NCBI GenBank assembly: GCA_016176295.1
Contig: JACOXN010000003.1
Location: forward strand, 28,212 to 92,211
Direction of reading: 5' to 3'
DNA length: 64,000 nucleotides
DNA from: Candidatus Giovannonibacteria bacterium
Lineage (GTDB): Bacteria; Patescibacteriota; Minisyncoccia; UBA11713; 2-01-FULL-45-33
Shown here in pieces: positions 7,060 to 30,854 of this stretch. The notes beneath the pieces were generated by a model, which did no database searches, was not told the origin of the DNA, and saw only the letters and a program-made list of their open reading frames with translations. Each line of letters opens with the position of its first letter. The stretch's first letter is position 1. The position numbers and the translations under genes are program-made.

Positions 7060-7063
7060 ATTT

Positions 7064-7516: not shown

Positions 7517-7568
7517 AATATTAAATATAACTTCGGTATTTTTTATATTGTTTCATAACAAATTAAAT

Positions 7569-7856
7569 TTATATTTTCAATTTCTTATTTTTCATTTGCG
7601 ACCCTCTAACTTTCAAATAAAGGACCAGGCAAATTGCCAAAAAAAATAACCCGAAAATATATTTGATTACCAGCGGTGGCTGTTGGATAAGACTGGCGTA
7701 CCAAAGAGCTATAATATTCGCAATAAATTGGATAAAAAGCAAGAGAAAGCTTAAGCCTTCCACGGTTTTAGTCTTCATCGTTTTAATTATCTGCGGAATA
7801 TAACAGATTGTAAACAAAATTGTAGCTATCCAGCCCAAAAGTGATGATAGTTCCAT
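7569..7856 (-). CDS. PQ-loop / SemiSWEET-type small membrane protein
   Basis: 95 aa with three predicted TM helices and a PQ motif in TM1 (ICYIPQIIKTMKTK). Confidence 0.7.
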   Translation of the reverse strand: MELSSLLGWIATILFTICYIPQIIKTMKTKTVEGLSFLLLFIQFIANIIALWYASLIQQPPLVIKYIFGLFFLAICLVLYLKVRGSQMKNKKLKI

Positions 7857-7865
7857 GTGCGTAAG

Positions 7866-10282: not shown

Positions 10283-11394
10283 TTTTTTCCTGCGAATTTT
10301 TTGATTAGTGAGACCGTCCTTTCCACAGTATCAGATTTATAATACGGATCTTTAATTTTGTTGAATATTTCTTGAATTTTATCATGCTCCGAGTCTATTT
10401 GTCTGACAGCGTCGATAATTCTTTTTTTATCGGTTCCGGCCAAAAAATTCACTCCCAAATCAACTGTTTCAGACCATGCAGTAATATCCCGCAGAGTTAT
10501 ACAAGGAACTTTTGACCAAAAAACTTCCTTTTGCAGTCCTCCCGAATCGGTTACGACTATACTAGCTCCTGCGATCAAATGCAAAACTTCCCTATTCTCC
10601 AAGGGCTCTATTATGACAAAATTAGCAAGACCTTTTTTTGCATATTTAAGCTTTTCAAGCCTAGCTTTAGTGCGCGGATGGATTGGCCAAACTACCTTGT
10701 ACTTTTGTAAACTTCTCAAAGCATCTAGCACATTCTTCATTTTTTTCGGGTCATCAACATTTCCCGCTCGGTGCATGGTCAAAAAAATATATTTCTCCTC
10801 TTTCAAGCCTAACTTTTCCCTCAAATCTAAACTCTTACTTTCTCTAAAATTTTTCTGAAATACCTCATATAACGGGTCCCCAGTATTAAATATTTTTCCT
10901 AAAACCTTTTCGTCGCGCAAATTTTTCGCGGAAGTATCGGAAACGGCAAAAAGGACATTTGAAGCATGGTCAATGAGGCGACGGTTTTTTTCTTCCGGCA
11001 GGCTCATATCCCATTCTCGCGGCCCGGCTTCAAGATGCGCAATCGGAATGTTGTATTTCATTGCCGCGACCAGCGCGGCAAGAGAAGAGTACGTGTCTCC
11101 CAAAACTGCGATAATATCCGGATTAAATTTTTCAAAGAATTCTTCCAAACCCGCTGTCATTACGGGCATCAACCTTCTTTTGCTGTTTTTACCGGCCTTC
11201 AAATTTTTATCCGGCATCGGCAATTTTAGCTCTTTAAAAAAAGATTCGCTCATTTCATAATCATAATGCTGACCGGTATGAATCAAACGAAAATTAACTT
11301 CGGGATCTTTTTTTAAACGAGATATAACGCCAGCGGAGCGTATGATCTCGGGCCTTGTACCGACGATGTATACAATTTTCTTTTTATTTTTCAC
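10276..11394 (-). CDS. UDP-N-acetylglucosamine (or UDP-diacetamido-sugar) 2-epimerase, WecB/WbpI family
   Basis: [31 protein letters not shown] and HLEAGPR motifs. Confidence 0.8.
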
Positions 11395-11909
11395 AATTTC
11401 TCAATGATATTCCCCCCTCTATCCACTTTACCGTGAATTTTCGCGGGATTTCCATATACAAGCGCAAAATCTGGCACATCTTTAGTCACAACTGAACCAG
11501 CGCCAATCAAAGCATATTCGCCTATTGTCACGCCTGGAAGTATGGTTGAACCAGCGCCTACGGATGCACCTTTTTTTATCAAAATTTTTCCCAAAACCCA
11601 ATCACGATCGTCTTTCAGTTTTCCATTTTCATCAATAGCCCGCGGAATTTTGTCATTAGTTAATATGACACCTGGACCCAAAAAAACACCATCCTCTAAA
11701 ATAACGCCATGATATACAAAAACGCCATTTTGTATCTTAACATTGTCTCCGATAGATACGCCAAAATCAACATATGATCCTTTGCCCAGAATGCAATTTT
11801 TCCCGACCGTGACTTTTTCCCTGACTTGCGCCTGGTGCCATATCTTTGTTCCTTCGCCTATCCGGCTTTCCGGTGATACGTCGGCAGATGGATGTACATA
11901 ATAGTTCAT
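11391..11909 (-). CDS. Left-handed beta-helix (hexapeptide) sugar N-acetyltransferase, WbpD/WlbB-like
   Basis: Continuous hexapeptide repeats ([39 protein letters not shown]..). Size and layout match 3-amino-sugar N-acetyltransferases. Confidence 0.7.
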
Positions 11910-14353: not shown

Positions 14354-15448
14354 TTAAATATTTTTTATTGTATCTATTATGTAAGTGATATCCTTGTCGG
14401 AAACCCCGGGATGCACGGGCAGTGATAAAACCTCCTTAACCATTTGCTCAACAATCGGGAGAGAATACTTGCCCGCAGCGCGCACAATATGTGGAACCAA
14501 ATGCAATGGTTTAGGATAAAAAACCGCGTTTCCTATACCTTTTTCGGATAAATATTTTGAAAACTCATCTCTCGTCATTTTACAGTGTTTCGTAATTCTG
14601 ATCGTATACTGGTGAAATACATGTTTGCAATCTGGGCTTACATGTGGCAAAATTATTCCTTTTATCTTGTCCAGCCCCTTTGTAAGCATCGCCGAATTTT
14701 TGATTCTATTCTTATTGAAATTTTCTATTTTTTTCAACTGTGCCAGCCCGACGGCAGCAGAAATATCCGTCATTCGGTAATTATACCCCATATCAAAATA
14801 TTCATAGCGGGCTTTCTGCGATTGTCCATGATGCCGGAACATTCTTGCTCTTTCCGCATATTTCTCATTATCTGTTACCAAAATTCCACCTTCGCCAGTA
14901 GTCATATTTTTTGTCGCATAAAAAGAAAAACAACCGATATCTCCCAAAGCACCAGCTTTTTTATTTTTAAACACAGCACCGTGCGCCTGGCAGGCGTCTT
15001 CGATGATCTTTAATTTATTTTTGTTCGCAATTTTTCTAATTTTCTCAAAAGCATACGGATGCCCAAAAATATCAACGGGGAGGATAGCTTTTGTTTTAGC
15101 CGTGATTTTTCTCTCCAATTTATCCGGATCAATATTGAATGTTACAGGTTCAATATCGCAAAAAACCGGCTTTGCGCCTAATTGCAAAATTGCATTTACC
15201 GTAGCTACAAAAGTAAATGGAGTAGTGATAATCTCATCGCCTTTTCCTATACCAGCGGCGTATAAAGCAGTATGCAAAGCCGCCGTGCCGCTATTTACCG
15301 CAATCGCATATTTGGCCCCGCAATACTCAGCAAATTTCTTTTCAAATTCCGAAACTCTCGGCCCCTGGGCGATAATGCCGGACCGCAAAACATTGGTAAC
15401 CGCCACAATTTCTTCTTCGTTGAAATATGGTTGCGCAATATTGATCAT
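14354..15448 (-). CDS. DegT/DnrJ/EryC1/StrS-family PLP sugar aminotransferase (WbpE-like)
   Basis: AVNSGTAALH, DEIITTPFTFVAT and SFYATKNMTTGEGG (PLP-lysine region). Confidence 0.85.
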   Translation of the reverse strand: MINIAQPYFNEEEIVAVTNVLRSGIIAQGPRVSEFEKKFAEYCGAKYAIAVNSGTAALHTALYAAGIGKGDEIITTPFTFVATVNAILQLGAKPVFCDIEPVTFNIDPDKLERKITAKTKAILPVDIFGHPYAFEKIRKIANKNKLKIIEDACQAHGAVFKNKKAGALGDIGCFSFYATKNMTTGEGGILVTDNEKYAERARMFRHHGQSQKARYEYFDMGYNYRMTDISAAVGLAQLKKIENFNKNRIKNSAMLTKGLDKIKGIILPHVSPDCKHVFHQYTIRITKHCKMTRDEFSKYLSEKGIGNAVFYPKPLHLVPHIVRAAGKYSLPIVEQMVKEVLSLPVHPGVSDKDITYIIDTIKNI

Positions 15449-16995
15449 GATAATATTCGTTCTATCTCAGTCTTGTAAGCTCCCCATAACAAACTCTTCC
15501 CCTCTCCAGCCCATTCTTTGGTGATTTTATCGTAATCGAAGCCAGTATCAAACACGGCAGCAACATAATTTTCCAATTTTCGTTCATATTCGTCCGTGTT
15601 CAAATTTTTACTTAGTACTTCCTTTATTTTGGCAGACAAAGTAGTCAGATCGGTATGATGGGTCACATTTGGTAATTTTAATGAGGTACCCAAATCACCC
15701 AATTGAATGGCAGGTATCTTTAAAAAAGCTGCCTCAGCAATCGAAGTGCTTGACGGACTAATCACCACAGATGATCCTTTCAATACTTTTTCCGATGCGA
15801 TCCTATAATCAATAAATTTAACGTTGACGGTTCTTGCCACTTTTTCTATATAGGAAGGCGACCGCTTACCTATCATCACAGGATGTTCTTTTACTACCAA
15901 AGTATAATCATCCGGAAGAGATTGCGCGACAAGCCTTGCCGTTTCTATTTGATTGGAAAAATAGGGCGCCCTGACATCGATTGTCTCCTCTGGTTGAAAT
16001 TGAAGAGGCAGATAGGCATACCTTTTAACCGCCTCCAAAGGATAATAACTAAAACGATTCATAAACTTTTTATAACTCTTTTCACAAAAGTGATCCCTCA
16101 AAATAATCTTTGGTGGTTTATATTCGTATGTCGGACCCAGCTTCAGCATGTCCTTTGGCCTTTTTATGTACCAACGCAAAATTTGCTTGTAAGGTCCCAA
16201 CTCGGCTCGAATTTTCTGAAAAAAGGTTTTATTATCGCTTATCTTTATATATGTCGGGGTCTTAAAATTATCTCTAAATTCATTAATATATTGCCGAGCA
16301 CGTGCTCGATTCGGTGTTTCTTTTCGTCGGTCATTCAAAAAATTAACGCGGTCAAAAAAAATGCCGCGATCACACTGATATCCTTCCACAAAAATATAGA
16401 ATCCCTGCACTTTACTGTCCGTAGATGCCAACACCGGCACATTGTGTTTTCGCCCGTATAAATTGAACATAATATGCATCAAGGAGACAAAATTAGGACA
16501 GATCACCAGATCAGCTTTAAAGCCGTCAAAAAAGAATTTTATGCATTTATAGACAGCCTGGATATATTCAATCATTCGTTCGTCGGAAACATTCTTTTTA
16601 TATCCGAAATAATATTTATCTCCGTAAGATTTTGTGTAGAGCCGCATTGAATAAACAAAAGGCCAAATTGAATCGACACCTAATTCTGAACAAATCTCCT
16701 CCAAGGAATAAACATCCCCCGCAAGATATGCTCGCGGATCTCTTAATATTCCATCACCAAATAAAATATGATGATATTTAACATCGGGCTGATTCACAAT
16801 TAAATCGTGAGTAGTCTCCTTAAAAGTTAATGCCGCAAGTTCGCATCCTTCATCAAACAACTTCTTCGCCAAAAAACGGCCAACGCCTTTGCCCCAAGAG
16901 CGTTGTTGAAAAATTAAAACGCGTTTTCCTTTTAGATTACTCATCTTATCCAGCTTAGATAATAAAACCTTATCATGTATGGCTTTGTTTCTCAA
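15445..16995 (-). CDS. Capsule polysaccharide biosynthesis protein family (KpsC/KpsS/LpsZ-like, Capsule_synth) paralog 1
   Basis: YAYLPLQFQPEETIDVRAPYFSNQIETARLVAQSLPDDYTLVVKEHPV matches the family core (LQxxxDxxI ... KxHP). Paralogous to 33289-34719. Confidence 0.6.
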   Translation of the reverse strand: MRNKAIHDKVLLSKLDKMSNLKGKRVLIFQQRSWGKGVGRFLAKKLFDEGCELAALTFKETTHDLIVNQPDVKYHHILFGDGILRDPRAYLAGDVYSLEEICSELGVDSIWPFVYSMRLYTKSYGDKYYFGYKKNVSDERMIEYIQAVYKCIKFFFDGFKADLVICPNFVSLMHIMFNLYGRKHNVPVLASTDSKVQGFYIFVEGYQCDRGIFFDRVNFLNDRRKETPNRARARQYINEFRDNFKTPTYIKISDNKTFFQKIRAELGPYKQILRWYIKRPKDMLKLGPTYEYKPPKIILRDHFCEKSYKKFMNRFSYYPLEAVKRYAYLPLQFQPEETIDVRAPYFSNQIETARLVAQSLPDDYTLVVKEHPVMIGKRSPSYIEKVARTVNVKFIDYRIASEKVLKGSSVVISPSSTSIAEAAFLKIPAIQLGDLGTSLKLPNVTHHTDLTTLSAKIKEVLSKNLNTDEYERKLENYVAAVFDTGFDYDKITKEWAGEGKSLLWGAYKTEIERILS

Positions 16996-17010: not shown

Positions 17011-17490
17011 CTATGTTCGACGGGCCAAAGTCATTTCGACGCAAACGATTTTTTTGTAGGGAACTATGCCGCCATATTTATAGCCAGCTTTGGCGAAAGC
17101 CTTTAGTGAAGGAACATTGTCCTGTTTGATGTGCGCAATTATCCGTTGCACTTCCGGGTGCTCCGAAAAAAGCATTTTGGCAGATTCACGCAGGCCTTTA
17201 GACGCATAGCCTAAACCAAAAAACCTATGCTCTACAGATACGTGTACTTCTGCTATTTCGCCCCGAATGTCGTATCGCACTTGCCCGACAGAAGTTTCTC
17301 CGAAATGCTGTACAACGTCGTCAATCACATAGAGGATGCGATTGGGATCCGCCAAAACTCCGGCAAACCACTTCTGATGGGTTTCAAGATCGACTTCATC
17401 CGAGTTCCACGACGCAAGGCGAACCGGTTCTTCATTTCGAAGATTGAATAAAAATTTTTCGTCGCCATGTTTTGCTTTTCTTATATTCAT
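17011..17490 (-). CDS. GNAT-family N-acetyltransferase (PseH-like candidate)
   Basis: GNAT acetyl-CoA pocket (HRFFGLGYASKGLRE). Start set at MNIRKAKHGDE (17490) because the longer track ORF overlaps the upstream synthase gene. Confidence 0.65.
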   Translation of the reverse strand: MNIRKAKHGDEKFLFNLRNEEPVRLASWNSDEVDLETHQKWFAGVLADPNRILYVIDDVVQHFGETSVGQVRYDIRGEIAEVHVSVEHRFFGLGYASKGLRESAKMLFSEHPEVQRIIAHIKQDNVPSLKAFAKAGYKYGGIVPYKKIVCVEMTLARRT

Positions 17491-17533
17491 TCCATGTCTC
17501 CTTCTTTTATAGCCGCAATTCCAATCAATCGAA

Positions 17534-18655
17534 TTAATCCGCACCAATACTACCAGCAATATGTTCTTTTTTCAAGGGTGTGCCGAATTCGATATCTACT
17601 GCCGCTATCTTTCCGACTACTTGGTCAAAATATTTCGTGTGCAGGCCAAATGCCGGACGAACTGAACGAACATTTTCCGGAGTAAATTTTTCTCCTTTTT
17701 TAATATCTTTGGCAACGAAAAGCGAGCGCCGCCAGCGTAAATTATATTTCTCAAGCTTGTTTCGTGGTCCGTAGTTAGGCGTTCCTAAAGCTTTTTGGTA
17801 TCGAACTTCATTAATCTGGTAATTCTTTTTACCATGCAAAATTTCAACGAGTTCTTTCAGCTCCGCAGGCTCAAGGGAGAAATCAGCATCCGGACCGCCC
17901 AAAGCTCGGTCCAAAATAATATGCTTTTCTACGATTGCCGCCCCCGCGCGCATAGCCATAATCGGCACATCTACCCCCCCGGAATTATCGGAAAAACCTG
18001 CAACCACTCCCCATCTTTTTGAAATATCCTGAATTGTGGCTAGATTTGTGTGTTCCTCATCCGCTTCATTTTTATAATCGGTAATGCAGTGCAGGATAGC
18101 TATATCTTTTGCGCCGTTTTCACGAAGAGTTTTTAAAGCGAGCTCAATATCTTCAATGCTCGCATATCCAATTGACATTATTACCGGTTTTCCGGTCTCA
18201 GCGACTCGTTTTAACAAAATAAAGTCATTCACTTCATAAGAAGCAATCTTGTAGAATTGCGCATTCATTTTCTCCAAAAAATCAACGGCAGTAACATCAA
18301 AGGGAGAAGAAAAAAGAAAAATTCCGAGTTCATCCGCAAGTTTTTTCAGTTTCGGCTGCCATTCCCACGGAGTGTAAGCCTGCTGATAAAGCTGGTAAAG
18401 AGTCTTCCCTTTCCACAACGCCGGATTATCGGCATCCGCTCCGACGCGAAACCATTCTTTGTCGGAATTAAGAGTGATAGTGTCCGCAGTATAGGTCTGA
18501 AGTTTTATCGCATCCGCTCCCGCTTCTTTCGCAACCCTGACCAACGCTTCCGCTTCCGCATATTTCTGATGATGATTGCCGGATATCTCCGCCACTACAA
18601 AAACCGGCTCGCCGTCTCCTACCATTCTATTCCCTAGCTTAATAACTTTGGCCAT
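17534..18655 (-). CDS. pseI: Nonulosonic acid synthase (NeuB/PseI/LegI family), probably pseudaminic acid synthase
   Basis: VAEISGNHHQKYAEAEALVRVAKEAGADAIKLQTY plus a C-terminal SAF-type domain (FVAKDIKKGEKFTPENVRSVRP). The PseI versus LegI/NeuB choice rests only on the PseB/PseC context. Confidence 0.75.
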   Translation of the reverse strand: MAKVIKLGNRMVGDGEPVFVVAEISGNHHQKYAEAEALVRVAKEAGADAIKLQTYTADTITLNSDKEWFRVGADADNPALWKGKTLYQLYQQAYTPWEWQPKLKKLADELGIFLFSSPFDVTAVDFLEKMNAQFYKIASYEVNDFILLKRVAETGKPVIMSIGYASIEDIELALKTLRENGAKDIAILHCITDYKNEADEEHTNLATIQDISKRWGVVAGFSDNSGGVDVPIMAMRAGAAIVEKHIILDRALGGPDADFSLEPAELKELVEILHGKKNYQINEVRYQKALGTPNYGPRNKLEKYNLRWRRSLFVAKDIKKGEKFTPENVRSVRPAFGLHTKYFDQVVGKIAAVDIEFGTPLKKEHIAGSIGAD

Positions 18656-18661
18656 CCATTT

Positions 18662-19291
18662 TTAAATATTAATTAAATATTTATACGTCCCGCTTCTTAT
18701 TTGTTCCGCTCCTTCTTTTTCTTTCGCAATCAATTCCTGCAGCTCAGATGAATCGTAAGCTTTTTGTATAACTTCGTTCCATCGGGAATAATCACTATCC
18801 AGAAGCACTTTCTCCGCTTCCACTAAGTTTATTTTTTTTGCGCTTGGATGGCCTTTTAGGTCCGGTCCAAAATCAAGCATGGCTCGTATGCGCGGCAAGT
18901 GGTAACGGTTGGAAATGAGATCAATTTGGCCAACAGTATTATTATCAGCAATAACAACGAGCGCTTTTAATTGTTCGTAAGTAGAGTTGGTTTTTCTTTC
19001 CTCCATGACTTTGTTTTCTGGTACCCCAAGCTCAATCAATTCCCGTTTCATGATGGATGACAAGAAAAGTTCCTTAGGAAGAACTAATTTTGATTTGCCT
19101 TTTTCGCCTAAAACAAGCAAAGACCGATCGGGATTTTTTTTAAAAAGCAGACTTCCCGCGACGATTCTTAAATAACCCCCCGGTGCGCCATGATGATCTT
19201 TTAAATCAGAAAAGTCGGTTGAATGCCACAAGCCATCGCTTTTCTTTTCAAACCAACCGCTAAGAATGGCGATAATGCGTTTATTTTGCAT
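18662..19291 (-). CDS. DUF218 (YdcF/SanA/ElyC-like) protein
   Basis: GVPENKVMEERKTNSTYEQL and LISNRYHLPRI blocks correspond to the DUF218 signature (Gvp...i..e..s.nT.eN ... s..H..R). Confidence 0.6.
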   Translation of the reverse strand: MQNKRIIAILSGWFEKKSDGLWHSTDFSDLKDHHGAPGGYLRIVAGSLLFKKNPDRSLLVLGEKGKSKLVLPKELFLSSIMKRELIELGVPENKVMEERKTNSTYEQLKALVVIADNNTVGQIDLISNRYHLPRIRAMLDFGPDLKGHPSAKKINLVEAEKVLLDSDYSRWNEVIQKAYDSSELQELIAKEKEGAEQIRSGTYKYLINI

Positions 19292-19964
19292 TTTGAGTAT
19301 TCGGCATATTATTTACAAACTGGCAGCAAAGCCCCGGAACCCGCGCGGAAATAAATAAAGCTTTCGCCAGCAATGGCTCCCAGCCGAATGCGCAAAGAGC
19401 GACAGCTATAGCGCCGTCAATATTTATCGGGAGATTCTTGCCGCTTTGCAGTTTCAATTCTTTTTCCAAATCTTTCGCAATTGAAATAAATTCCCCGCCT
19501 ATTCCTAATTCTCCCATTACCGCAAAAATAAGTTCAACTCTCGGATCAATTTCATAAATTCTGTGACCGTAACCCGGTAAGCGTTTTTTGGCTGTAAGGC
19601 TCTCCGACACAAATTTAACCGGAGTAATTTCATCTTTTTTTATCCGATAAAACATCTCCATACATGCTTCACCTGCGCCGCCATGAATATCATTGATCTC
19701 CAAAACTCCGGCGGCAACGGCTTCTGAAATTGTTTTTCCGACTTTGCCTGAGGAAATTACTGCCTTTGCCGAAGGAGTATCCGGACCATGATCAATGGTT
19801 AAATTCAAAATAAGCTCAAAAACTTTTAACTCGGCTTCATTTGGTTTCCGCCCTGAAAGCAATTCAAAAAACATTGCCGGATATGTAAGCTGTCGGCTTG
19901 CCTGCAATTGTTCCGTATCTCCAAAAAATGCAATGTTGTTTTTGTGTTGAATGGTTTTTGCCAT
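19281..19964 (-). CDS. Short citrate-synthase-fold protein, ATP-citrate-lyase C-terminal / citryl-CoA-lyase-like
   Basis: 227 aa. LTIDHGPDTPSA, INDIHGGAGE, LPGYGHRIYEIDPR and PINIDGAIAV parallel ACLY C-terminal blocks (ADHGPAVSGA, IGDRFGGA, IMGIGHRVKS..PD.R, LNVDG). Confidence 0.65.
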   Translation of the reverse strand: MAKTIQHKNNIAFFGDTEQLQASRQLTYPAMFFELLSGRKPNEAELKVFELILNLTIDHGPDTPSAKAVISSGKVGKTISEAVAAGVLEINDIHGGAGEACMEMFYRIKKDEITPVKFVSESLTAKKRLPGYGHRIYEIDPRVELIFAVMGELGIGGEFISIAKDLEKELKLQSGKNLPINIDGAIAVALCAFGWEPLLAKALFISARVPGLCCQFVNNMPNTQNAK

Positions 19965-19968
19965 AATT

Positions 19969-20874
19969 CTAGGACTTCTTTATTAAACCCGCGATATCAT
20001 CAAAATGTTCCGCGACCAAAACTCCGGCCTCCCGCAAAACTCTTCTCTTTTCCTTGGCCGTACCTTTCCGACCCTCAATAATTGCTCCTGCATGGCCAAA
20101 TTGGACATCATTCGGCAATACGGCGGCGAAATCCCCGGCAATGAACGCCACTACCTTTTTTTTGATCCTCCTCTCCGAAACAAGTTCTGCGACGCGTTCC
20201 TCCGCAGTACCTCCCAATTCCCCGAAAATAACCGATGCCGTTGTCATTGGGTCGTCCTCCAATGCAAGCAAAAAATCGGCAAAGTCGGTGCAAATTATCC
20301 TCTCGCCGCCGATACCCGCGGCATACGACACACCAAGATCGTTATTTTTGAGATGAAGGCTGATTTCGGATGTCATGCCGCCCGATTTGGAGATAACAGC
20401 AACATTGCCATCAACAAAAACGCGTGACGGATCGGCCCCGCCAATCGCGCCAATTTTAATTTTATTATGCGGGCTAATGAAACCTACCGAGCTGGGGCCC
20501 AAAACGCTTGCTCCGAACTGTCTGGAAAGAGAATAAATGATAGCTGCATCTTTTGTCGGCACTTTCTCTGCGCCGATCAATACGAATTTTATCCCCGATT
20601 CCATTGCTTCGGTAACCGCCCCTTTTGAAAAAAGAGGTGGCACAAACATAACTGACCCATCTACTTGCCCAACCGCTTGCACGGCATCTTTCACCGTATT
20701 AAAAATCGGTACCCCATCCAAAATCTCTCCGCCTTTGCCCGGGGTTACTCCCGCCACTATATTGGTGCCGTAAGCACGCATCCAAGGCAGAGCCCTCTGC
20801 CCCTCCGAACCGGTGATCCCTTGGCCGATTATTTTCGCGTTTTCCCTAAGCAACAAGCTCATGTTTTTTAGCAT
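19969..20874 (-). CDS. CoA-ligase alpha-type subunit, ATP-citrate-lyase / citryl-CoA-synthetase-like (SucD fold)
   Basis: GITGSEGQ CoA-binding start, SKSGGMTSE, and phosphohistidine loop VQFGHAGAII followed by AKEKRRVLREAGVLV (ACLY has FGHAGA...KNQALKEAGVFV). Start moved to the ATG at 20874 (AGGAG upstream) because the track ORF over-extends into the beta gene. Confidence 0.7.
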   Translation of the reverse strand: MLKNMSLLLRENAKIIGQGITGSEGQRALPWMRAYGTNIVAGVTPGKGGEILDGVPIFNTVKDAVQAVGQVDGSVMFVPPLFSKGAVTEAMESGIKFVLIGAEKVPTKDAAIIYSLSRQFGASVLGPSSVGFISPHNKIKIGAIGGADPSRVFVDGNVAVISKSGGMTSEISLHLKNNDLGVSYAAGIGGERIICTDFADFLLALEDDPMTTASVIFGELGGTAEERVAELVSERRIKKKVVAFIAGDFAAVLPNDVQFGHAGAIIEGRKGTAKEKRRVLREAGVLVAEHFDDIAGLIKKS

Positions 20875-22015
20875 ACTCTCCTGCGAGTTTAGAAATAATA
20901 TTTGCCGATTCCGCGATTGATGTTTCTTCTCCGTATAAATGCAGATCAAGTTCCTTAATTCCGCGCAGCATTTCAAATGCCTCTTTGTCCCTTGGACCTC
21001 CGCGTCTGATAACTATCGGGAAATCAAATTTTTTAACCAGTTCTTTTTCCGCGCTCCTTAAGCCTTCCATCAATCCCGACAATGTCGCGTAAATATCGGT
21101 AAAATTAGCGATGGCGCCTACTATCCAAAGACCGCAAAGACCCGGCTTGGACATTACGATCTTAGCCAATTTTTCGATTTTTTCTTTCGGTGGATTTCCG
21201 GAATATTCCGTATAATTCGCCGGCCTACCGCCAGCCGCAAAAAGAGCATCAAGCGCCGTCAGAGAACCGCCGCCTCCGGAAGCCAAAACAGCTATATCCC
21301 CTGAAAGGTCGAAATACGCCGAGCCGGCCGTGCCTCTGTAGTCCCCCTCGTCAATTTTTTTTGCCGCAATTTCTCTTTCTGTCGGAGGCCTTCCGGAAAT
21401 CGATCTCGTAGGGAAATTCCATTCTTTGTGCCTCCCCGAAGCCGCGTCATCCAGTTTAATTTTTGCGTCAAGCGCGACATATCCCTGTTCGGACAAAACT
21501 AAGGGATTAATTTCCAAAAGCAGGCAGTCGCCATCAAAAAAAAGTCTAATAATTTTTTTTACCAGCTCGTCCGGCAATCCGGCAAGTGCCGGCACATGTT
21601 CCAGCGGATTTTTCGGGTCAATTGGAAATACACTGCTTTTGCGGTCCTCAATGCCGGTACCGCCTTCATCGGAAAACATTAAAACCGGTTCCCTGCTTTC
21701 CGTATCATAAGAAATAGAAATATAGTACTCGGAGCCGGAATATTCTATCTTCTCTTCGGCCAAAATACTCTCTATTTTTTCTCCGTTGATTGAAGAATCA
21801 AACATTTTGTAAACAGCGCTTTTGGCTTCGTCAGCATTGCTCACAATAATAATTCCTCCGGCATCTTTCCTTTTTCCGGTAAGTGTCTGCGCCTTCAAGA
21901 CAATATTCGATGCAACGGCAAAATCTGCCTTGAGAGATTTGATCAGCCGGGATTTCGGCACATTTATGCCCGCCTCTTCAAGAATCTTTTTGCCTTCAAA
22001 TTCGTAGAGAATCAT
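20846..22015 (-). CDS. ATP-grasp beta-type subunit, ATP-citrate-lyase / citryl-CoA-synthetase-like (SucC fold)
   Basis: ANYTEYSGNP (ACLY-type ANYGEYSGAP, not the SucC-type ANFLDVGGGA), IVGAIANFTDIYATLSGL, IVIRRGGPRDKEAFEML and LHLYGEETSI parallel ACLY blocks (IGGSIANFTNVAATFKGI, IFVRRGGPNYQEGLRVM, IHVFGTETHM). Confidence 0.7.
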   Translation of the reverse strand: MILYEFEGKKILEEAGINVPKSRLIKSLKADFAVASNIVLKAQTLTGKRKDAGGIIIVSNADEAKSAVYKMFDSSINGEKIESILAEEKIEYSGSEYYISISYDTESREPVLMFSDEGGTGIEDRKSSVFPIDPKNPLEHVPALAGLPDELVKKIIRLFFDGDCLLLEINPLVLSEQGYVALDAKIKLDDAASGRHKEWNFPTRSISGRPPTEREIAAKKIDEGDYRGTAGSAYFDLSGDIAVLASGGGGSLTALDALFAAGGRPANYTEYSGNPPKEKIEKLAKIVMSKPGLCGLWIVGAIANFTDIYATLSGLMEGLRSAEKELVKKFDFPIVIRRGGPRDKEAFEMLRGIKELDLHLYGEETSIAESANIISKLAGEYAKKHELVA

Positions 22016-22785
22016 TTTATCCGACCTCGATCTTTATCATTTTTTAACGATTTCTCATATCCCTCGTTCCGACCGATGGTTTGATTTATTTTAGCAATTT
22101 CGGGGTTTTTATCTAAAAAATCTAAAATATCCGTAAAACCGAAGTTTTTATTTTTTTTGTTAAGAGATCCGAATATTTTTTCCACCAAAATCAGATCTTC
22201 GAGGTTATCAACCGTTAACCTGATATCTGAAACATCTTTTTTATATTTTATATTTCCCAGCCTGAAAATTTCTGGATGGTTGGCAATATAAGCTGTCACA
22301 TGCTCTCGCTCCGATGGTAATCTGGCTTCGCGCCATGCCTTCTCCAGCGCAGCAAAAGAAAACACCTCTACATCCATTCCGTCCGGATAAGTGGGAGGCC
22401 TCACGTTGCTCACATAATCAAACTTATTTTTGTTTTTTAAATAATAATTCACCACATCGTCCACTATTTTCGGGTCCATTAAAGGGCAATCCCCAGTGAT
22501 GCGCACAATGACATCTCCACCAAATTTTTTGGCAGACTGATAATATCTATCCAAAACATCATTTTCCGAACCGCTGAACACGTCTATTCCCAATTTTTTG
22601 ACAACTTCCGCAGTTTCGTTATCCTCCGGTTTGTCGGTTGTGGCCAGAACAATCTTATCCAAAGTTTTGGCGCGTTTTAGACGCAATATTAAGTGCTCAA
22701 GCAAGGTCTTGCCCTCCACCACTTTAAGCACCTTTCCGGGAAGACGAGTGGAACCAATTCTTGCCTGTATAATTGCGACAGTCAT
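22012..22785 (-). CDS. Cytidylyltransferase (SpsF / acylneuraminate cytidylyltransferase family; CMP-nonulosonate synthetase candidate)
   Basis: N-terminal AIIQARIGSTRLPGKVLK and ITGDCPLMDP blocks. Confidence 0.7.
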   Translation of the reverse strand: MTVAIIQARIGSTRLPGKVLKVVEGKTLLEHLILRLKRAKTLDKIVLATTDKPEDNETAEVVKKLGIDVFSGSENDVLDRYYQSAKKFGGDVIVRITGDCPLMDPKIVDDVVNYYLKNKNKFDYVSNVRPPTYPDGMDVEVFSFAALEKAWREARLPSEREHVTAYIANHPEIFRLGNIKYKKDVSDIRLTVDNLEDLILVEKIFGSLNKKNKNFGFTDILDFLDKNPEIAKINQTIGRNEGYEKSLKNDKDRGRIK

Positions 22786-24074: not shown

Positions 24075-25394
24075 CTAAGTCAGACGTTTAAAATCTGAAT
24101 GAGCTACCGGGCCTTCAAGTAATTTATGAATCTGATTATTATTCAATGCTTCCTTTATTATTTCAAAAACTTCACCAACCGCTTTAAGATAAACCTTGAT
24201 ATGCGCTTCTTTATGCGCGTAAGAAACATACACGCTCGGCGTGGCAAGAAACCCCCGCTTCAGCATTTCTTGGGTAAATAAAGTACGTAGAGCTTGGTTA
24301 TCTTTAGAGTAATTAAATGAAAAAGTGATCAATGCTTCCGGCCCTACCACCGAAATATTCAAGCCGTGTTTCTGCGCCAGAAGCGACCAGCCGTCTCCGA
24401 TCATTTTCCCGATTTTTTTAATGTGCAGAGGGACATTCTTAGCCTGCAATTTTTTTATTGTGGCAAGAGCCGCTGCCGGACCGACCCGCTCAGTCCAAAA
24501 CGTACTGGAAATAAATGTATCCTGCGCCGACTGCATGACTTTTTTCCTGCCTATTATAGCAGCCATCGGGTATCCGTTGCTCATGGCTTTGGCAAAGACG
24601 GCGATATCGGGATGAACGCCGTAAAACAGATGAGAACCGCCCGGATTCAATCTCCAGGCGATGGTAATTTCATCAAAAATAAGAACCGCACCTATTTTTT
24701 CCGCAATTTTTTTTACTTTTTTCAGAAAATCATTTTTTGGTTCCTGGTGCCGCAAAGGTTCCACGACAATAACCCCGATATCCCTATGTTTTTTTACGAT
24801 TTCCTCCAATTCATCTATGCGGTTGTAGTTAAATGGAACAGCGCTTCCTTTAAGCCCTCTTGGAACTCCTTTTGGTTCCAGACCCGGAAGCAGATGCCCG
24901 TCCAAATTTTTGTCGCTTGAAAGATTAGAAGACAGATACCAATCCTGCCAGCCATGATAGCCGCAAAAAGCCACTCTGTCTCTGCCGGAATGCGCCCTGG
25001 CGATCCTTACTGCGACCGCCATGGATTCCCCGCCGGTACGGGCAAAACGCGCCATCCCCGCCCAAGGATGGAGTTTAATGAGCAATTCAGCCAATTCAAC
25101 TTCCTCGGGGGAATTCAATGTATTCATGGAACCCTCGTCAATAACTTTTTTTACGGCTTTATTCACGTCATCGTCCGCGTAGCCCAAAATACAACTCCCT
25201 ACGCCCATGATGGTCATGTCTATGAATTTATTACCGTCCAAATCCCAGACTTCCACACCTTTTGCTTTTTTAAAATAAGCCGGCCATTGCTCCGGCAAAA
25301 ACATTTCCGAACGCTTGGACAAAAGCTGTCCGCCTCCGGGAATTACTTTTTTAGCTGTATTCCATAACGCGATCCCTCTTTTTGGCTTTTTCAT
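24075..25394 (-). CDS. Class III PLP aminotransferase (glutamate-1-semialdehyde aminomutase-like)
   Basis: 439 aa. GSCILGYADDDVN, RFARTGGESMAVAVRIARA, IVVEP and IFDEITIAWR blocks. Confidence 0.75.
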   Translation of the reverse strand: MKKPKRGIALWNTAKKVIPGGGQLLSKRSEMFLPEQWPAYFKKAKGVEVWDLDGNKFIDMTIMGVGSCILGYADDDVNKAVKKVIDEGSMNTLNSPEEVELAELLIKLHPWAGMARFARTGGESMAVAVRIARAHSGRDRVAFCGYHGWQDWYLSSNLSSDKNLDGHLLPGLEPKGVPRGLKGSAVPFNYNRIDELEEIVKKHRDIGVIVVEPLRHQEPKNDFLKKVKKIAEKIGAVLIFDEITIAWRLNPGGSHLFYGVHPDIAVFAKAMSNGYPMAAIIGRKKVMQSAQDTFISSTFWTERVGPAAALATIKKLQAKNVPLHIKKIGKMIGDGWSLLAQKHGLNISVVGPEALITFSFNYSKDNQALRTLFTQEMLKRGFLATPSVYVSYAHKEAHIKVYLKAVGEVFEIIKEALNNNQIHKLLEGPVAHSDFKRLT

Positions 25395-25401
25395 AAAAGA
25401 T

Positions 25402-26298
25402 TTATTTTGTTAAAACATTAACGATCACTTTTGCGTCAGACAAATCCTGAAGCGGTTTTGATTTTTTTTTCACGCAAGAAAAAAAATGCTTGAGCTCCTC
25501 AATAAACATACCATCGAGATCTTTTTTGTTTTTTCGGAAATCCAATTCGTATTTTCCGTCTTCAGCCAAAATCTCAATTGTATGAACCGGGGTTTTTCTT
25601 AAATAATCCATAGAAAGTGATGATATGACGCCATTTTCATGTTCAAATACCACTGATGCCGCTTCTTCGCTCTTGGTATCTATCGAATGTATTTTACTTT
25701 TGTTTATCTTACTGTTTTTAATAGGGCCGAGTAAGGCGCGCAAATAATCCGCCACGTGCGACCCCGAGTCCAACACAACTCCACCACCCTTTCTTTCTGC
25801 AGCATAAATTTTTTTGTAATTGGCGTTGGCACGGGCAGCAGGAAGAAAATAGCCCAGAGTGATATTGGCAAGTATTGGCTTACCAAATTTATTTCTCTTC
25901 ACATCTGACGCGAATTTAATAAAACTGCGGTTAAACCTGTAATTACAGGCCACCATAACAACTTTCTTAAGTTTCCTTGATTTCTTTACTAAGGCGCCTA
26001 CTCCTTTTAGATTATGCGAAAGCGGCTTTTCGATGAAAACATGAGCTCCGTAATTCAGCGCCAGAGACGCCGTTGCCACGTGCAAATGGGTGGGATTACA
26101 AACAAACACAACATCCGGCTGTTCCCTTTCCATCGCAGTTTTAACATTGTTATAAAAATTGAACTTACCAAGCACCAGCAAAGACTCGGGTTTCTTTTCA
26201 TCCGGATCGCAAACCGCCAGATCTTTATAACCCAGCTTAAGCAGATTTTTTAAATGCTTTGTACCAATTGAACCTGCACCAATAACCAAAATAGTCAT
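25402..26298 (-). CDS. Gfo/Idh/MocA-family oxidoreductase
   Basis: ILVIGAGSIGTKHLKNL Rossmann motif and FIEKPLS motif. Confidence 0.75.
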   Translation of the reverse strand: MTILVIGAGSIGTKHLKNLLKLGYKDLAVCDPDEKKPESLLVLGKFNFYNNVKTAMEREQPDVVFVCNPTHLHVATASLALNYGAHVFIEKPLSHNLKGVGALVKKSRKLKKVVMVACNYRFNRSFIKFASDVKRNKFGKPILANITLGYFLPAARANANYKKIYAAERKGGGVVLDSGSHVADYLRALLGPIKNSKINKSKIHSIDTKSEEAASVVFEHENGVISSLSMDYLRKTPVHTIEILAEDGKYELDFRKNKKDLDGMFIEELKHFFSCVKKKSKPLQDLSDAKVIVNVLTK

Positions 26299-26337: not shown

Positions 26338-27465
26338 TTAACCGGTTATTCCTTGGATTTTCTCGATTACGAATTGCTGATATTTCTGCGTTAGACCGGG
26401 AAAAATCGGGATGGAAATCTCGGATTCGTAGAATTTTTCCGCACTGGAGCAAAGCCCTTTTTTGTATCCAAGTTTCCGGTAATAAGGATGCCAATATACC
26501 GGAATATAATGGACTTGCACGCCAATGCCGGCATCGCGTAGTTTTTTAAAAACTTCCGCGCGCTTTGAATTATCTTTAAGCCTCAAAGGGTAGAGATGCC
26601 AACTCGAGCTTGCACCTTTGTATTCTTTGGGCAGAATGATATTTTTATTGTTTTTGAAAGCCTCATTATATCGCGCGACTATTTTTTTTCTTGCCACTAT
26701 GAATTTACCCAATTTTTTCAGCTGTGTAATACCAAGCGCGGCCTGCATATCCGTCATACGATAATTATGCGCCAACTCCTGCATTTCATAGTACCAATCA
26801 CCGGCTGGTGAAGTCTCTAATTTTTTAATGTCTTTCGTAATTCCATGGCTCCTGTAAAGGCAAAGTTTCTCATAAAAATCCTTGTTATTCGTTGCAATCG
26901 CCCCGCCCTCGCCTGTCGCTATTGATTTAACGGGATGGAAGCTGAACATGGTCATATCAGCGATGCCGCCGATCTTTTTGCCTTTGTATGAAGCACCCAA
27001 AGCATGGGCGGAATCTTCAAGGAGTATTAAATTGTGTTTTTTTGCCAAGACTTTAAGCTCATCCAATTTCGCGGGAAGCCCGGAATAATCCACCGGCACA
27101 ATAGCGCGTGTTCTGGGAGTTATCTTTTTTTCGACTTCCTTGGGATCTATATTTCCGGATCCTTCTTCAATATCCGCAAAAACAATTTTTGCTCCGCTCC
27201 ACAAAGCCGCGTTGGATGTTGCGGCAAAAGTGAGAGGTGTAGTTATTACCTCGTCGCCCTTTTTCAAACCTGCGGCAAAGTAAGCCGCCTCAAGAGCGGC
27301 AGTACCGTTTGAGAATGCGACGGCGAACTTAGCTCCCGCTTCCTTAGCCAGAGCTCTTTCAAATTCACCGACTTTCGGGCCTTGAGTTAAAAAATCGGAT
27401 CTCAAAACATCAACAACCGCTTTGATGTCGTCTTCACCAATAGATTGATGGCTGTAGGGAATCAT
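26338..27465 (-). CDS. pseC: UDP-4-amino-4,6-dideoxy-N-acetyl-beta-L-altrosamine transaminase (PseC-like, DegT family)
   Basis: MIPYSHQSIGEDDIKAVVDVLRSDFLTQGPKV is a PseC-type N-terminus, with FSFHPVKSIATGEGG as the PLP-lysine region. Start moved to the ATG at 27465 (the track uses an upstream TTG). Confidence 0.75.
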   Translation of the reverse strand: MIPYSHQSIGEDDIKAVVDVLRSDFLTQGPKVGEFERALAKEAGAKFAVAFSNGTAALEAAYFAAGLKKGDEVITTPLTFAATSNAALWSGAKIVFADIEEGSGNIDPKEVEKKITPRTRAIVPVDYSGLPAKLDELKVLAKKHNLILLEDSAHALGASYKGKKIGGIADMTMFSFHPVKSIATGEGGAIATNNKDFYEKLCLYRSHGITKDIKKLETSPAGDWYYEMQELAHNYRMTDMQAALGITQLKKLGKFIVARKKIVARYNEAFKNNKNIILPKEYKGASSSWHLYPLRLKDNSKRAEVFKKLRDAGIGVQVHYIPVYWHPYYRKLGYKKGLCSSAEKFYESEISIPIFPGLTQKYQQFVIEKIQGITG

Positions 27466-27477
27466 TGTATTAATTTT

Positions 27478-27527
27478 CAATTATCAATTTACAATTTTCA
27501 ATAAATGTTAAAATCATCAATTTTCAA
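27478..27527. repeat. Left inverted-repeat block flanking the four-helix-bundle ORF
   Basis: CAATTATCAAT (27478-27488) plus three AATTTTCAA 9-mers (27472, 27493, 27519). Reverse complement of the block at 27888-27929. Confidence 0.65.
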
Positions 27528-27889
27528 ACACCTCTGGATGAACGGCTAATTTTAGCAAAAATTAGAAGCAATTCATTTGCTTCTCTCCAAAATTTTTTTA
27601 TTTCTTCTGTTCGTTCTGAATTTGCTCTTGCCAGCAATCGTAACCAATGTTTCGTTTCTTTTATTTCTTTCTTCACTATGCCAATCTTATGAATAAAATC
27701 TTTTTTACTTTCCGCCTCTACTGCCTCACAATAGTTTGCCCCCGTTGATCCCGAAGAACCTACCAATTGATCAATAATTCTGCGGTTTACCACATCAATA
27801 CTTAAAGTTCTAACAAAATCAATAATTTCTTCCGCAAACTTTGCTGTTCTTTCCTCAAGATCAAACTTCTGATTTGATAATTTATCCAT
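27524..27889 (-). CDS. Four-helix-bundle protein (family formerly called '23S rRNA intervening-sequence protein')
   Basis: 121 aa. GANYCEAVEAESKKDFIHKIGIVKKEIKETKHWLRLL is the hallmark of this family. Confidence 0.8.
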   Translation of the reverse strand: MDKLSNQKFDLEERTAKFAEEIIDFVRTLSIDVVNRRIIDQLVGSSGSTGANYCEAVEAESKKDFIHKIGIVKKEIKETKHWLRLLARANSERTEEIKKFWREANELLLIFAKISRSSRGV

Positions 27890-27947: not shown

Positions 27948-28934
27948 TTAACTTTCTAGAACTTCTTTGGCTTTTTCTAATGGCAAAAGAAAATCTTTGT
28001 GGTTGCTCACATATAAGGAGTTTACCGGGAAGTTTGGTTTATTCGCATGAACACTGGGCTCTTGGTCGGCGCTGAACTCCGGCAAAATCGCATAAAAAAG
28101 TCCGAGATCCTTTGCCCGCCTAGCCTCGTATTCCGTAATTAAAATCTCATGCATTTTTTCACCCGGACGCACTCCAACCGTTTTTAAAGTGCAGTTCGGC
28201 GCTAAAGTTTTTAGTACATCCACGACTTTCAAACTATTCATCTTGGGCACGAAGATTTCGCCTCCTTCCATAACGCCGAGCCCCGTCAAAATAACATTCA
28301 TAACATTGTCTACTTTTATCCAGAAACGAGTCATGCGCTCATCCGTGAGGGTAAGCACTCCGGTATGCTTCTGCTTCGCAACCAGCTCCACAATGCTTCC
28401 GCGGCTCCCGATGACATTGCCGTATCTTACTACGCTGAACTTGGTCTTTCCTTTCGCCCCGCGGTAAGCATTGGCAGCTATTACCAGTCTTTCCGCGCAC
28501 AGTTTGCTTGCCCCGTAAAGATTAACCGGCTGAACCGCCTTGTCCGATGATACAAAAAGAACTTTTTCAACGTTATTGTCCAAGGCGGCATCTACCACAT
28601 TTTGAGTTCCCAAAACATTTGTTTTTATAGCTTCGAGCGGATTATATTCCAAAGCCGGAACTTGTTTCAACGCCGCGGCATGCACCACAATGTCTACTCC
28701 GTTAAAAGCGCGGTCCAACCTAGGCAAGTCCCTCACGTCTCCCAAAAAATATCTTACCCTAGCGTCATTTACTTCATTTTGCATGACGCTCTGTTTAAAT
28801 TCGTCCCTGCTGAAAATTATTATCTTTTTAATATCAGGAATTGCCAGCAATTTAGCCACGAAAGCATGACCAAATGTACCGGTCCCCCCGGTTACTAAAA
28901 TTGTTTTTCCTTTTAAAAATGAATTGTCCATCAT
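27948..28934 (-). CDS. pseB: UDP-N-acetylglucosamine 4,6-dehydratase (inverting), PseB/FlaA1-like
   Basis: GKTILVTGGTGTFGHAFV, IIIFSRDEFKQ, RYFLGDVRD and YGASKLCAE (SDR YxxxK). Confidence 0.85.
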   Translation of the reverse strand: MMDNSFLKGKTILVTGGTGTFGHAFVAKLLAIPDIKKIIIFSRDEFKQSVMQNEVNDARVRYFLGDVRDLPRLDRAFNGVDIVVHAAALKQVPALEYNPLEAIKTNVLGTQNVVDAALDNNVEKVLFVSSDKAVQPVNLYGASKLCAERLVIAANAYRGAKGKTKFSVVRYGNVIGSRGSIVELVAKQKHTGVLTLTDERMTRFWIKVDNVMNVILTGLGVMEGGEIFVPKMNSLKVVDVLKTLAPNCTLKTVGVRPGEKMHEILITEYEARRAKDLGLFYAILPEFSADQEPSVHANKPNFPVNSLYVSNHKDFLLPLEKAKEVLES

Positions 28935-29085: not shown

Positions 29086-29619
29086 TTACTCCTTGAATTT
29101 TACTAAAACTACCCGGTCCACATATTTTCCATCTGACAAATATTGTTTTTTTTGTCTGAATTCTTCGTTGAAGCCGGCTTTTTTAAAAGTCTTTACTGAC
29201 CCGATATTGTCTTCATAGGTACCCGCGAGTAGTTTATGTATTTTAAAATATTTAAAAGAAAAATCCGAAAAAAGATGAATAGCTTCGGCTGCAAAACCTT
29301 TACCCCAAGAACCTTTGTCTCCAATCATAATTGCGATGCTGCCAAACCCGTGATCCCAATAAATGTCTCCCAATTTAATGGTGCCAATAAATTTATTTAA
29401 GTCTTTCCTGATTATTGCCAAAAACACCGAGTTAGAATCTGCATTCACTTTTTTGACATATTTCTTCGTAGATTCGAGGGTATGTTCAGTAAAACGGGTT
29501 TCCATATACTTACCGACCTCCTTATCGTTAAGCCAGGAACAATATTCTTCTGTGACGTCTGCCGGAGTAATGCTCCTCAAAACAATTTTTTCACCTTTGA
29601 TAAGTATTTTTTTATTCAT
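29086..29619 (-). CDS. GNAT-family N-acetyltransferase (RimJ/RimL-like)
   Basis: 177 aa with the GNAT core WGKGFAAEAI. Confidence 0.7.
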   Translation of the reverse strand: MNKKILIKGEKIVLRSITPADVTEEYCSWLNDKEVGKYMETRFTEHTLESTKKYVKKVNADSNSVFLAIIRKDLNKFIGTIKLGDIYWDHGFGSIAIMIGDKGSWGKGFAAEAIHLFSDFSFKYFKIHKLLAGTYEDNIGSVKTFKKAGFNEEFRQKKQYLSDGKYVDRVVLVKFKE

Positions 29620-30843: not shown

Positions 30844-30854
30844 AATATTATATA

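Follow-up and report, generated by a model that had tools for sequence, protein, structure and literature searches.

Here we describe a 64-kb window of the genome of a Candidatus Giovannonibacteria bacterium, a member of the candidate phyla radiation (CPR, or Patescibacteria), in which three consecutive genes for a putative citrate-cleaving enzyme lie inside a gene cluster for pseudaminic acid (pse) biosynthesis; the window is the whole stretch of DNA that was analysed. Judged by sequence and predicted fold, the trio is an unfused enzyme of the citryl-CoA synthetase (CCS) and citryl-CoA lyase (CCL) type with a citrate site like that of ATP-citrate lyase (ACL), and it is neither SucCD accompanied by a citrate synthase (CS) nor a fused AclAB. 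This assignment is made because of matches to solved structures and to NCBIfam models, the fold of the third protein, the conserved residues and a tree of the beta subunit. We propose, with moderate confidence, that the enzyme makes acetyl-CoA and oxaloacetate from citrate and that it is co-expressed with sugar N-acetyltransferases. CPR bacteria have very small genomes and a poorly understood carbon metabolism, and a conserved citrate-cleaving operon hints at how they may obtain acetyl-CoA for the N-acetylation of amino sugars destined for cell walls and surface glycans, a hypothesis that can be tested.

Organization of the three genes

All three genes are on the minus strand, and their products show 100% identity to proteins encoded on a Candidatus Giovannonibacteria contig of about 98 kb. 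The first encodes a beta subunit of the CCS large-subunit or ACL beta type (20846..22015, 389 aa), with ATP-grasp and citrate-binding domains recognized by Pfam and by matches to solved structures. The second encodes an alpha subunit of the CCS small-subunit or SucD-like type (19969..20862, with an alternative start at 20874; 297 aa), in which Pfam and matches to solved structures place a CoA-binding domain and a phospho-histidine loop. The third (19281..19964, 227 aa) encodes a predicted minimal citryl-CoA lyase with the C-terminal fold of citrate synthase, as indicated by NCBIfam and by an AlphaFold model. An earlier note on this DNA had reported the three minus-strand open reading frames (ORFs), a set of protein motifs and gene overlaps at 22012-22015 and 19281-19291, and direct reading of the sequence confirmed all of them. 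Thus, the translation of beta carries ANYTEYSGNP, IANFTDIYATLSG, IVIRRGGPRD and LHLYGEETS, that of alpha carries VQFGHAGA and LREAGVLV, and that of the third protein carries DHGPDTPSA, DIHGGAGE, GYGHRIYEIDPR and INIDG. The neighbours that it had named, a cytidylyltransferase gene (22012-22785) and the genes for a DUF218 protein and for PseI, are likewise in place.

The junctions between these genes are tight. The stop of the cytidylyltransferase gene and the start of beta share an ATGA at 22012-22015, read directly in the sequence. The beta stop (TAG, 20846-20848) falls inside the start region of alpha and makes a 17-nt overlap with the alpha start ATG at 20862. Gene calls on identical and related contigs use this ATG, which gives 297 aa and is most likely where the alpha gene begins; an alternative ATG lies at 20874. 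A TTG start at 20976, corresponding to the mechanical ORF 19969-20976, was rejected as too long for an alpha subunit of about 297-301 aa. The alpha stop (TAG, 19969-19971) is followed by a 4-nt spacer and by the lyase ATG at 19964, and the lyase stop overlaps the start of the DUF218 gene by 11 nt (19281-19291). Each of the three ORFs has its own stop, and alpha and lyase are separate genes in all loci examined. Rfam and tRNA scans across the whole window detected no RNA genes.

Similarity of the subunits to citryl-CoA synthetase and citryl-CoA lyase

In Pfam, the beta subunit matches ATP-grasp_2 (91 bits) and Citrate_bind (PF16114, 84.3 bits against a cutoff of 26.8), the latter domain, specific to ACL and CCS, standing in the place of the C-terminal domain of SucC. 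Its best match among solved structures is the large subunit of citryl-CoA synthetase from Hydrogenobacter thermophilus (6hxq_B, 188 bits), followed by Chlorobium AclB (151 bits), Methanothrix ACL (106 bits) and the beta subunit of succinyl-CoA synthetase (SCS, 105 bits). It reaches neither the NCBIfam SucC models (156-160 bits, cutoffs 370-375) nor the Pfam family for ACL-type ATP-grasp domains (PF24948, 48.8 bits, cutoff 83). Residues G273, N304, F305, T306 and R338 of beta align with G309, N346, F347, T348 and R379 of human ACLY (3mwd_A), among which we take G309, N346, T348 and R379 to be the citrate-binding residues in the structure of the ACLY-citrate complex. F347 also belongs to the citrate site (PMC10115795). 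Across 21 homologues G273, N304, T306 and R338 are invariant, and the set including F305 is invariant or nearly so. In a neighbour-joining (NJ) tree with a single CcsA reference, SucC split off from the remaining beta sequences in 100/100 bootstraps, the CPR beta clade was monophyletic in 90/100, and this clade paired with ACL beta and not with the CcsA of H. thermophilus in 83/100. The apparent sister placement to ACL beta is provisional, because the NJ tree was rebuilt from aligned regions with only five references, all solved structures.

The alpha subunit contains the Pfam domains CoA_binding, Succ_CoA_lig and Ligase_CoA, and its FGHAGA phospho-histidine motif aligns with the GHAGA of SCS and CCS. 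It scores 264-265 bits with the NCBIfam SucD models, short of their cutoffs of 336-353. Among solved structures it matches SCS alpha (2yv2, 213 bits) and the CCS small subunit (6hxq_A, 210 bits) about equally, and ACL at 126 bits.

The third protein matches Citrate_synt (PF00285) over profile positions 138-349 of 357 only. Its top four NCBIfam matches are all citryl-CoA lyase models (142-102 bits); the best of them, NF004869, gives 141.9 bits against a cutoff of 212, and the cutoffs of the three others are missed as well. The NCBIfam citrate synthase models give at most 79 bits, with cutoffs above 330. The same ranking is seen with solved structures, where CCL of H. thermophilus (6hxp) scores 115 bits, citrate synthases at most 66 and ACLY about 52. 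The AlphaFold model, built on a 39-sequence alignment (pLDDT 92.7), superimposes on 6hxp with a TMq of 0.90, compared with 0.79-0.88 for the CCL modules of ACL and ACLY and 0.64-0.75 for citrate synthases. Residues H59, H94, H134, R135, R142, D183 and R208 do not vary among 39 homologues; H59, H134, D183, R142 and R208 align with catalytic positions of citrate synthase, and the protein retains counterparts of the citrate synthase residues H274, H320 and D375 and of the oxaloacetate-binding R329 and R401. Lyase homologues (n = 120) are uniformly about 220 aa long, and the third gene is therefore no pseudogene fragment. The C-terminus is about 30-40 residues shorter than that of H. thermophilus CCL. 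Because the curated CCL cutoffs are missed and the subunits are shorter, we regard the trio as a divergent subfamily of the CCS/CCL type.

These comparisons bear directly on a simpler explanation, in which the trio would be an ordinary SucCD with a truncated citrate synthase, both remnants of a TCA cycle. The near tie of alpha between SCS alpha (213 bits) and the CCS small subunit (210 bits) would allow it, as would some database names that read succinyl-CoA synthetase or citrate synthase, but the beta subunit has a Citrate_bind domain and no SucC C-terminal domain, the SucC and SucD models stay far under their cutoffs, SucC stands apart in every bootstrap replicate, and the third protein fits CCL far better than CS by both sequence and fold. 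We give this explanation practically no credence: a SucCD with a citrate synthase fragment is refuted by domains, scores, fold and tree. The earlier note had asked whether the genes might fall among ordinary SucCD and citrate synthases, and the separation of SucC in 100/100 bootstraps and the lyase TM of 0.90 to CCL show that they do not. Its preference for ACL over SCS holds in that the trio has the domain inventory of ACL, or of CCS plus CCL; as a label, however, split CCS/CCL type fits better than ACL, because alpha and lyase are unfused and nearer to the CCS small subunit or SCS alpha and to CCL than to AclA.

Location of the trio in the predicted pseudaminic acid operon

The trio makes up genes 2-4 of a predicted gap-free operon with genes for a PseF-like protein, a DUF218 protein, PseI and a GNAT, and PseB and PseC are encoded upstream, all on the minus strand. 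The first gene of the operon (22012..22785) encodes a PseF-like CMP-sugar cytidylyltransferase (Pfam CTP_transf_3, 115 bits). After the trio come the gene for the DUF218 protein (18662..19291; Pfam DUF218), whose start overlaps the lyase stop, that for the pseudaminic acid synthase PseI (17534..18655; TIGR03586, 402.1 bits against 340.25; Pfam NeuB and SAF), and that for a PseH-like GNAT N-acetyltransferase (17011..17559; Pfam Acetyltransf_3), a predicted consumer of acetyl-CoA. Upstream lie the genes for the aminotransferase PseC (26338..27480; TIGR03588, 486.5 bits against 423.5), for PseB, the inverting 4,6-dehydratase of UDP-N-acetylglucosamine (UDP-GlcNAc) (27948..28934; TIGR03589, 408.5 bits against 407.75), and for a second GNAT acetyltransferase (29086..29619; Pfam Acetyltransf_3, 84 bits). 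A hexapeptide-repeat sugar N-acetyltransferase of the NeuD/PglB/VioB family (11391..11909; TIGR03570, 118 bits, under the cutoff of 160.8) would be a third consumer of acetyl-CoA. The several N-acetyltransferases announced for this cluster by the earlier note are thus three, two GNATs and one hexapeptide-repeat protein.

PseB, PseC and PseI reach the NCBIfam equivalog cutoffs. The GNAT at 17011..17559 falls short of the PseH equivalog (28.6 bits against 93.1) and the cytidylyltransferase short of the PseF equivalog (28.8 bits against 205.7), and they belong to the general GNAT and CTP_transf_3 families only. No match to PseG was found among the 59 ORFs of the window that were scanned, 19 of them with NCBIfam and the others with Pfam only; the DUF218 protein or a 516-aa protein (15445-16995) might replace it.

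Throughout the stretch that begins at 22785 and extends down to about 7866, adjacent genes either overlap or are no more than 21 nt apart. In a consensus scan of the window, terminator-like sites were as frequent as expected from shuffled sequence, and promoter-like sites barely exceeded that expectation. The scan was thus uninformative, and it is the gene packing, with its short or overlapping junctions, that suggests that the trio represents genes 2-4 of one long operon.

Distribution and gene neighbourhoods

Homologous loci (labelled L followed by a number) were gathered by scanning species-representative genomes and JGI metagenomes and by targeted look-ups, and were dereplicated to 108. 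Homologues of the trio are abundant at 50-80% identity and occur almost exclusively in CPR lineages, including Azambacteria, Microgenomates, Woesebacteria, Daviesbacteria, Woykebacteria, Taylorbacteria and Paceibacterota. Of the 108 loci, 82 retain the order beta-alpha-lyase, and contig ends cut many of the rest. Many of the trio-bearing records are third-party metagenome-assembled genomes titled 'uncultured Gammaproteobacteria' (L008-L012, L016, L018-L021 and others), a title that may be placeholder taxonomy and not a real assignment. We also observed a more distant clade of trios (L091, L092, L101, L127; L099, L106, L115, L124; L047), with 45-50% identity in beta and 35-40% in the lyase. In this clade extra genes often stand between alpha and lyase, four loci have a hexapeptide acetyltransferase gene just upstream of beta, and the contig of L047 is labelled archaeal.

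Most loci have housekeeping neighbours. The pair dnaG-rpoD lies upstream of the trio in Woesebacteria and Microgenomates, and the largest cluster of similar neighbourhoods, which includes loci labelled Daviesbacteria, has trpS, a gene for a tRNA-binding protein and ftsH downstream; the CTP synthase gene neighbours the trio in L053. To count linkage, we considered the 63 loci flanked by 8 kb of sequence or more and called a locus linked to nonulosonic acid when at least two markers were found within 10 kb. By this definition nine loci are linked, and some glycan marker is present in 15 of the 63.

Linkage takes several forms. The order of the window, PseF-trio-DUF218-PseI-GNAT, is also that of L003 and L054, and further orders are NeuB-trio-DUF218-GNAT (L055), NeuB-DUF218-GNAT-trio (L029), PseB-PseC-GFO-aminotransferase-PseF-PseI-trio-DUF218-GNAT (L077), trio-aminotransferase-PseB...DUF218-PseF (L014), HisH-HisF-PseA-like...trio (L069), trio-NeuB-like-DegT-PseF-PseC (L113) and DegT-trio-oxidoreductase-acetyltransferase-DegT (L025/L070), where the trio lies inside a diacetamido-sugar set. 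A homologue of the PseF-like cytidylyltransferase is encoded near the trio in L003, L005, L014, L029, L054, L055, L077 and L113. DUF218 accompanies NeuB/PseI and a GNAT in seven linked loci (L003, L005, L014, L029, L054, L055 and L077) and is absent beside trios in a housekeeping context. Homologues of the second GNAT are found in L003, L005, L014 and L029, and in L025/L070 the trio has a gene for a homologue of the hexapeptide acetyltransferase directly downstream. The earlier note had allowed that the proximity to pse genes might be confined to this contig; at least nine dereplicated loci show it in rearranged form, which rules out a contig-specific accident.

The abundance of housekeeping contexts raises the question of whether the trio is a housekeeping operon for cleaving or handling citrate, whose position among pse genes would be a by-product of genome compaction and rearrangement, without coupling to the glycan. 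This is in line with the neighbours of most trios (dnaG-rpoD, trpS, ftsH, CTP synthase and the like), with nonulosonic-acid markers in only 9 of the 63 well-flanked loci, and with base composition. The glycan island around the trio, which spans about 75-45700, has a lower GC content: between 7866 and 38961 it amounts to 36-45%, with 34-53% at third codon positions (GC3), compared with 46-49% (GC3 46-54%) for the housekeeping genes at 47749-61719, such as secD and gyrB. The alpha gene (50%) and the beta gene (45%) resemble the core genome (46-49%) and not the island (36-44% in this comparison), whereas the lyase gene (42%, GC3 36%) is island-like. However, linked loci show at least five different gene orders and come from lineages dispersed across the CPR clade of the beta tree, and the trio is unlikely to have been inserted by chance, time after time, into one kind of cluster. 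The linkage also exceeds the chance expectation, which is about 3 of 63 loci even with one cluster of about 25 kb in every genome of about 1 Mb, and in the window the trio is translationally coupled to both flanking pse genes. We regard an uncoupled housekeeping operon as an unlikely explanation for this position.

Other genes of the glycan island

The island also encodes a UDP-GlcNAc 3-dehydrogenase-like oxidoreductase with a DegT aminotransferase, WecB, methyltransferases, a Capsule_synth protein, an ABC exporter and many GT4 glycosyltransferases. Between PseC and the cytidylyltransferase, at 24075-26298 on the minus strand, a gene for a Gfo/Idh/MocA oxidoreductase stands beside one for a class-III aminotransferase resembling glutamate-1-semialdehyde aminomutase. 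The aminotransferase gene occurs with a CTP_transf_3 gene in six glycan-linked loci, four of which also have the oxidoreductase gene; the pair suggests an oxidation and a transamination step beyond the canonical pseudaminic acid pathway. At 29638-32281 (minus strand) follow genes for a 401-aa protein without a Pfam match, a HisF-like protein (PF00977) and a HisH-like protein (GATase). This set is reminiscent of those encoding amidotransferases for the synthesis of acetimidoyl (acetamidino) sugars, and homologues of all three genes recur with the trio in L014, L029 and L069.

These genes, together with the position of the trio between PseF and PseI/GNAT, bear on the second hypothesis of the earlier note, an acyl donor other than acetyl-CoA. 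In this reading, the ligase would activate another di- or tricarboxylate as an acyl-CoA, and the nonulosonic acid would be N-acylated in an unusual way when a GNAT transferred the acyl group to one of its amino groups. Nonulosonic acids do carry diverse N-acyl groups, and the oxidoreductase/aminotransferase pair at 24075-26298 could add an amino group. Yet the three acetyltransferases and the HisH/HisF-type amidotransferase set already account for acetyl and acetimidoyl groups, the family keeps all four citrate-binding residues of ACLY unchanged, and the lyase, always co-encoded with its His/His/Asp residues intact, would destroy citryl-CoA. With citrate-site and lyase residues invariant and the trio occurring mostly without glycan genes, the evidence disfavours this hypothesis, and we regard it as highly improbable.

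Several observations concern the rest of the island and its borders. A small gene between PseB and PseC (27524-27889, minus strand) belongs to the 23S rRNA intervening-sequence protein family (PF05635), and a second DUF218 gene is located at 41919-42431 on the plus strand. Within 6499-9059 (minus strand), a gene for a 186-aa protein with weak matches to HpcH/HpaI aldolase (citrate-lyase beta-like) and to the pyruvate kinase barrel has as neighbours genes for a TagD-like cytidylyltransferase (7064-7516) and a TagF-like glycerophosphotransferase (7866-9059), which suggest a teichoic-acid-like polymer. Two minus-strand regions flanking the island, 1094-4789 and 45720-47171, encode large proteins that contain repeats of the Lamin Tail Domain (and PKD) type; these may be surface proteins and possible targets of glycosylation.

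Proposed function

In the proposed reaction, the ATP-grasp subunit would bind ATP and citrate, and the alpha subunit would hold the phospho-histidine and bind CoA. Acting together, the two subunits would make citryl-CoA and release ADP and phosphate, and the lyase would split citryl-CoA into acetyl-CoA and oxaloacetate. The trio would thereby convert citrate, which is presumably scavenged, to acetyl-CoA outside any reverse TCA cycle. Because the trio would be transcribed as genes 2-4 of the pseudaminic acid operon, acetyl-CoA would be made alongside the enzymes expected to consume it, namely the PseH-like GNAT and the two further sugar N-acetyltransferases. The oxaloacetate could feed aspartate or, via phosphoenolpyruvate carboxykinase, the phosphoenolpyruvate used by PseI. 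To our knowledge, CPR bacteria have neither fatty-acid synthesis nor a TCA cycle, and because of this the N-acetylations of amino sugars are the main acetyl-CoA sinks of these organisms. The co-transcription expected with PseI and the acetyltransferases, and its recurrence, would fit a supply module. In most other CPR lineages the trio, in its housekeeping context, probably meets general needs for acetyl-CoA, for example in UDP-GlcNAc synthesis.

The first hypothesis of the earlier note was a dedicated supply of acetyl-CoA to the acetyltransferases of the cluster. Acetyl-CoA supply agrees with all the evidence and is the function that we infer; the word 'dedicated' goes too far, because the trio is a widespread stand-alone operon of CPR bacteria and stands mostly beside housekeeping genes.

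The same enzyme could also run in reverse, joining acetyl-CoA and oxaloacetate to citryl-CoA and releasing citrate, with formation of ATP by substrate-level phosphorylation. As fermenters, CPR bacteria rely on substrate-level phosphorylation, and the ACL of Desulfobacter postgatei reportedly operates in this ATP-making direction. The ACL reaction is near equilibrium and reversible, and citryl-CoA formation with acetyl-CoA plus oxaloacetate as substrates has been demonstrated (PMC10115795). On the other hand, no TCA cycle would be present to use the citrate, according to the literature (PMC9671151), and biosynthetic neighbours that consume acetyl-CoA fit its production and not its removal. We therefore judge reverse operation to be very unlikely in these loci.

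Several points weigh against citrate cleavage for sugar N-acetylation. About 85% of the well-flanked loci lie outside nonulosonic-acid clusters, the link to glycans is no general property of the family, and it may be incidental. No gene for a citrate transporter was recognized near the trio, and other sources of acetyl-CoA (PFOR, Acs, Pta-AckA) may be encoded elsewhere in the genome. The direction of the reaction is assumed, ACL being reversible. Finally, with scores under the CCL cutoffs and a shorter C-terminus, the activity of the lyase could differ from that of known CCL, and for the lyase-like module of human ACLY the catalytic role is disputed (PMC10115795).

Taken together, the results also allow a broader proposal, which we put forward tentatively and as a possibility that may well prove wrong. 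The CPR trio, related to genes on at least one contig labelled archaeal, may be a minimal unfused ACL, intermediate between the CCS/CCL of Aquificae and the fused ACL in that it combines an ACL-type citrate site with an alpha and a lyase that are still separate. It may also be the principal gateway from host citrate to acetyl-CoA in these bacteria, repeatedly recruited into operons for N-acetylated surface sugars. If this were true, CPR bacteria and their hosts would have in citrate a key currency of their relationship, and the widespread matches to aclAB in CPR genomes would mark heterotrophic scavenging and not the fixation of carbon.

More generally, our analysis suggests citrate as a metabolite that CPR bacteria may take from their hosts, and it cautions against taking matches to aclAB or CCS in genomes of CPR and DPANN as evidence of reverse-TCA carbon fixation. 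The trio in the pse operon would exemplify a precursor-supply enzyme co-transcribed with a glycan pathway; its combination of unfused subunits and an ACL-type citrate site is relevant to the origin of ACL from CCS/CCL. The enzyme chemistry itself would be conventional, and we infer the function from sequence.

Comparison with known systems

The pse cluster of the window shares PseB, PseC and PseI with the canonical clusters of Campylobacter and Helicobacter, and CTP_transf_3 and GNAT proteins are present as well; the DUF218 protein and the oxidoreductase with its class-III aminotransferase are additional. We know of no described pse cluster that contains a citrate-cleaving enzyme, and in the literature searched we found no report of one, nor of the trio recurring in pseudaminic-acid-type operons. 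Searches combining pseudaminic acid with CPR returned nothing, those combining nonulosonic-acid terms with Patescibacteria gave no paper mentioning Patescibacteria, and those combining citrate lyase or citryl-CoA with CPR gave mentions at survey level only. Among these surveys, CPR genomes with aclAB-like genes and without the rest of the reverse TCA cycle are described in PMC9671151, which cites Probst 2017, and Saccharimonadia are enriched in aclAB (PMC12577380). CPR and DPANN sequences annotated as SCS or CS were found to be monophyletic with CCS/CCL (bioRxiv 10.1101/2022.10.25.513756). No role for the ACL-like genes of CPR is proposed in PMC12577380, in bioRxiv 10.1101/2022.10.25.513756 or in PMC9671151. 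The existence of such genes in CPR was thus already known at survey level.

As for the enzyme, SucCD and citrate synthase have in common with the trio their superfamilies and folds, and the trio's alpha is SucD-sized with a GHAGA motif; the third protein, however, lacks the N-terminal third of citrate synthase, with 227 aa against about 360-430 aa for the full-length enzyme. With AclB/AclA of Chlorobium limicola (6hxj) and Methanothrix (6hxi) and with human ACLY the trio would share the overall chemistry, and its beta has identical citrate-binding residues and the same ANYxEYSG, IANFTD and RRGGP motifs. It differs from them in that AclA is a fusion of alpha and lyase (about 600 aa), in that the separate alpha of the trio is far nearer to SCS/CCS alpha (about 210 bits) than to the alpha region of ACL (126 bits), and in that the separate lyase is nearer to free CCL than to the lyase modules of ACL. 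The closest known system is probably CcsA/CcsB with Ccl of H. thermophilus (6hxq, 6hxp), two-subunit ACL coming next. Both the trio and the H. thermophilus system consist of three separate polypeptides with an identical domain inventory, but their identity is only about 30-35%, and the citrate-site motif is the ACL-like IANFTD in the trio and TANNTR in H. thermophilus CCS. The trio also has the shorter alpha (297 against 353 aa) and lyase (227 against about 260 aa), and it belongs to a CPR symbiont that is non-autotrophic and has no reverse TCA cycle, in which the genes are found in housekeeping or glycan operons.

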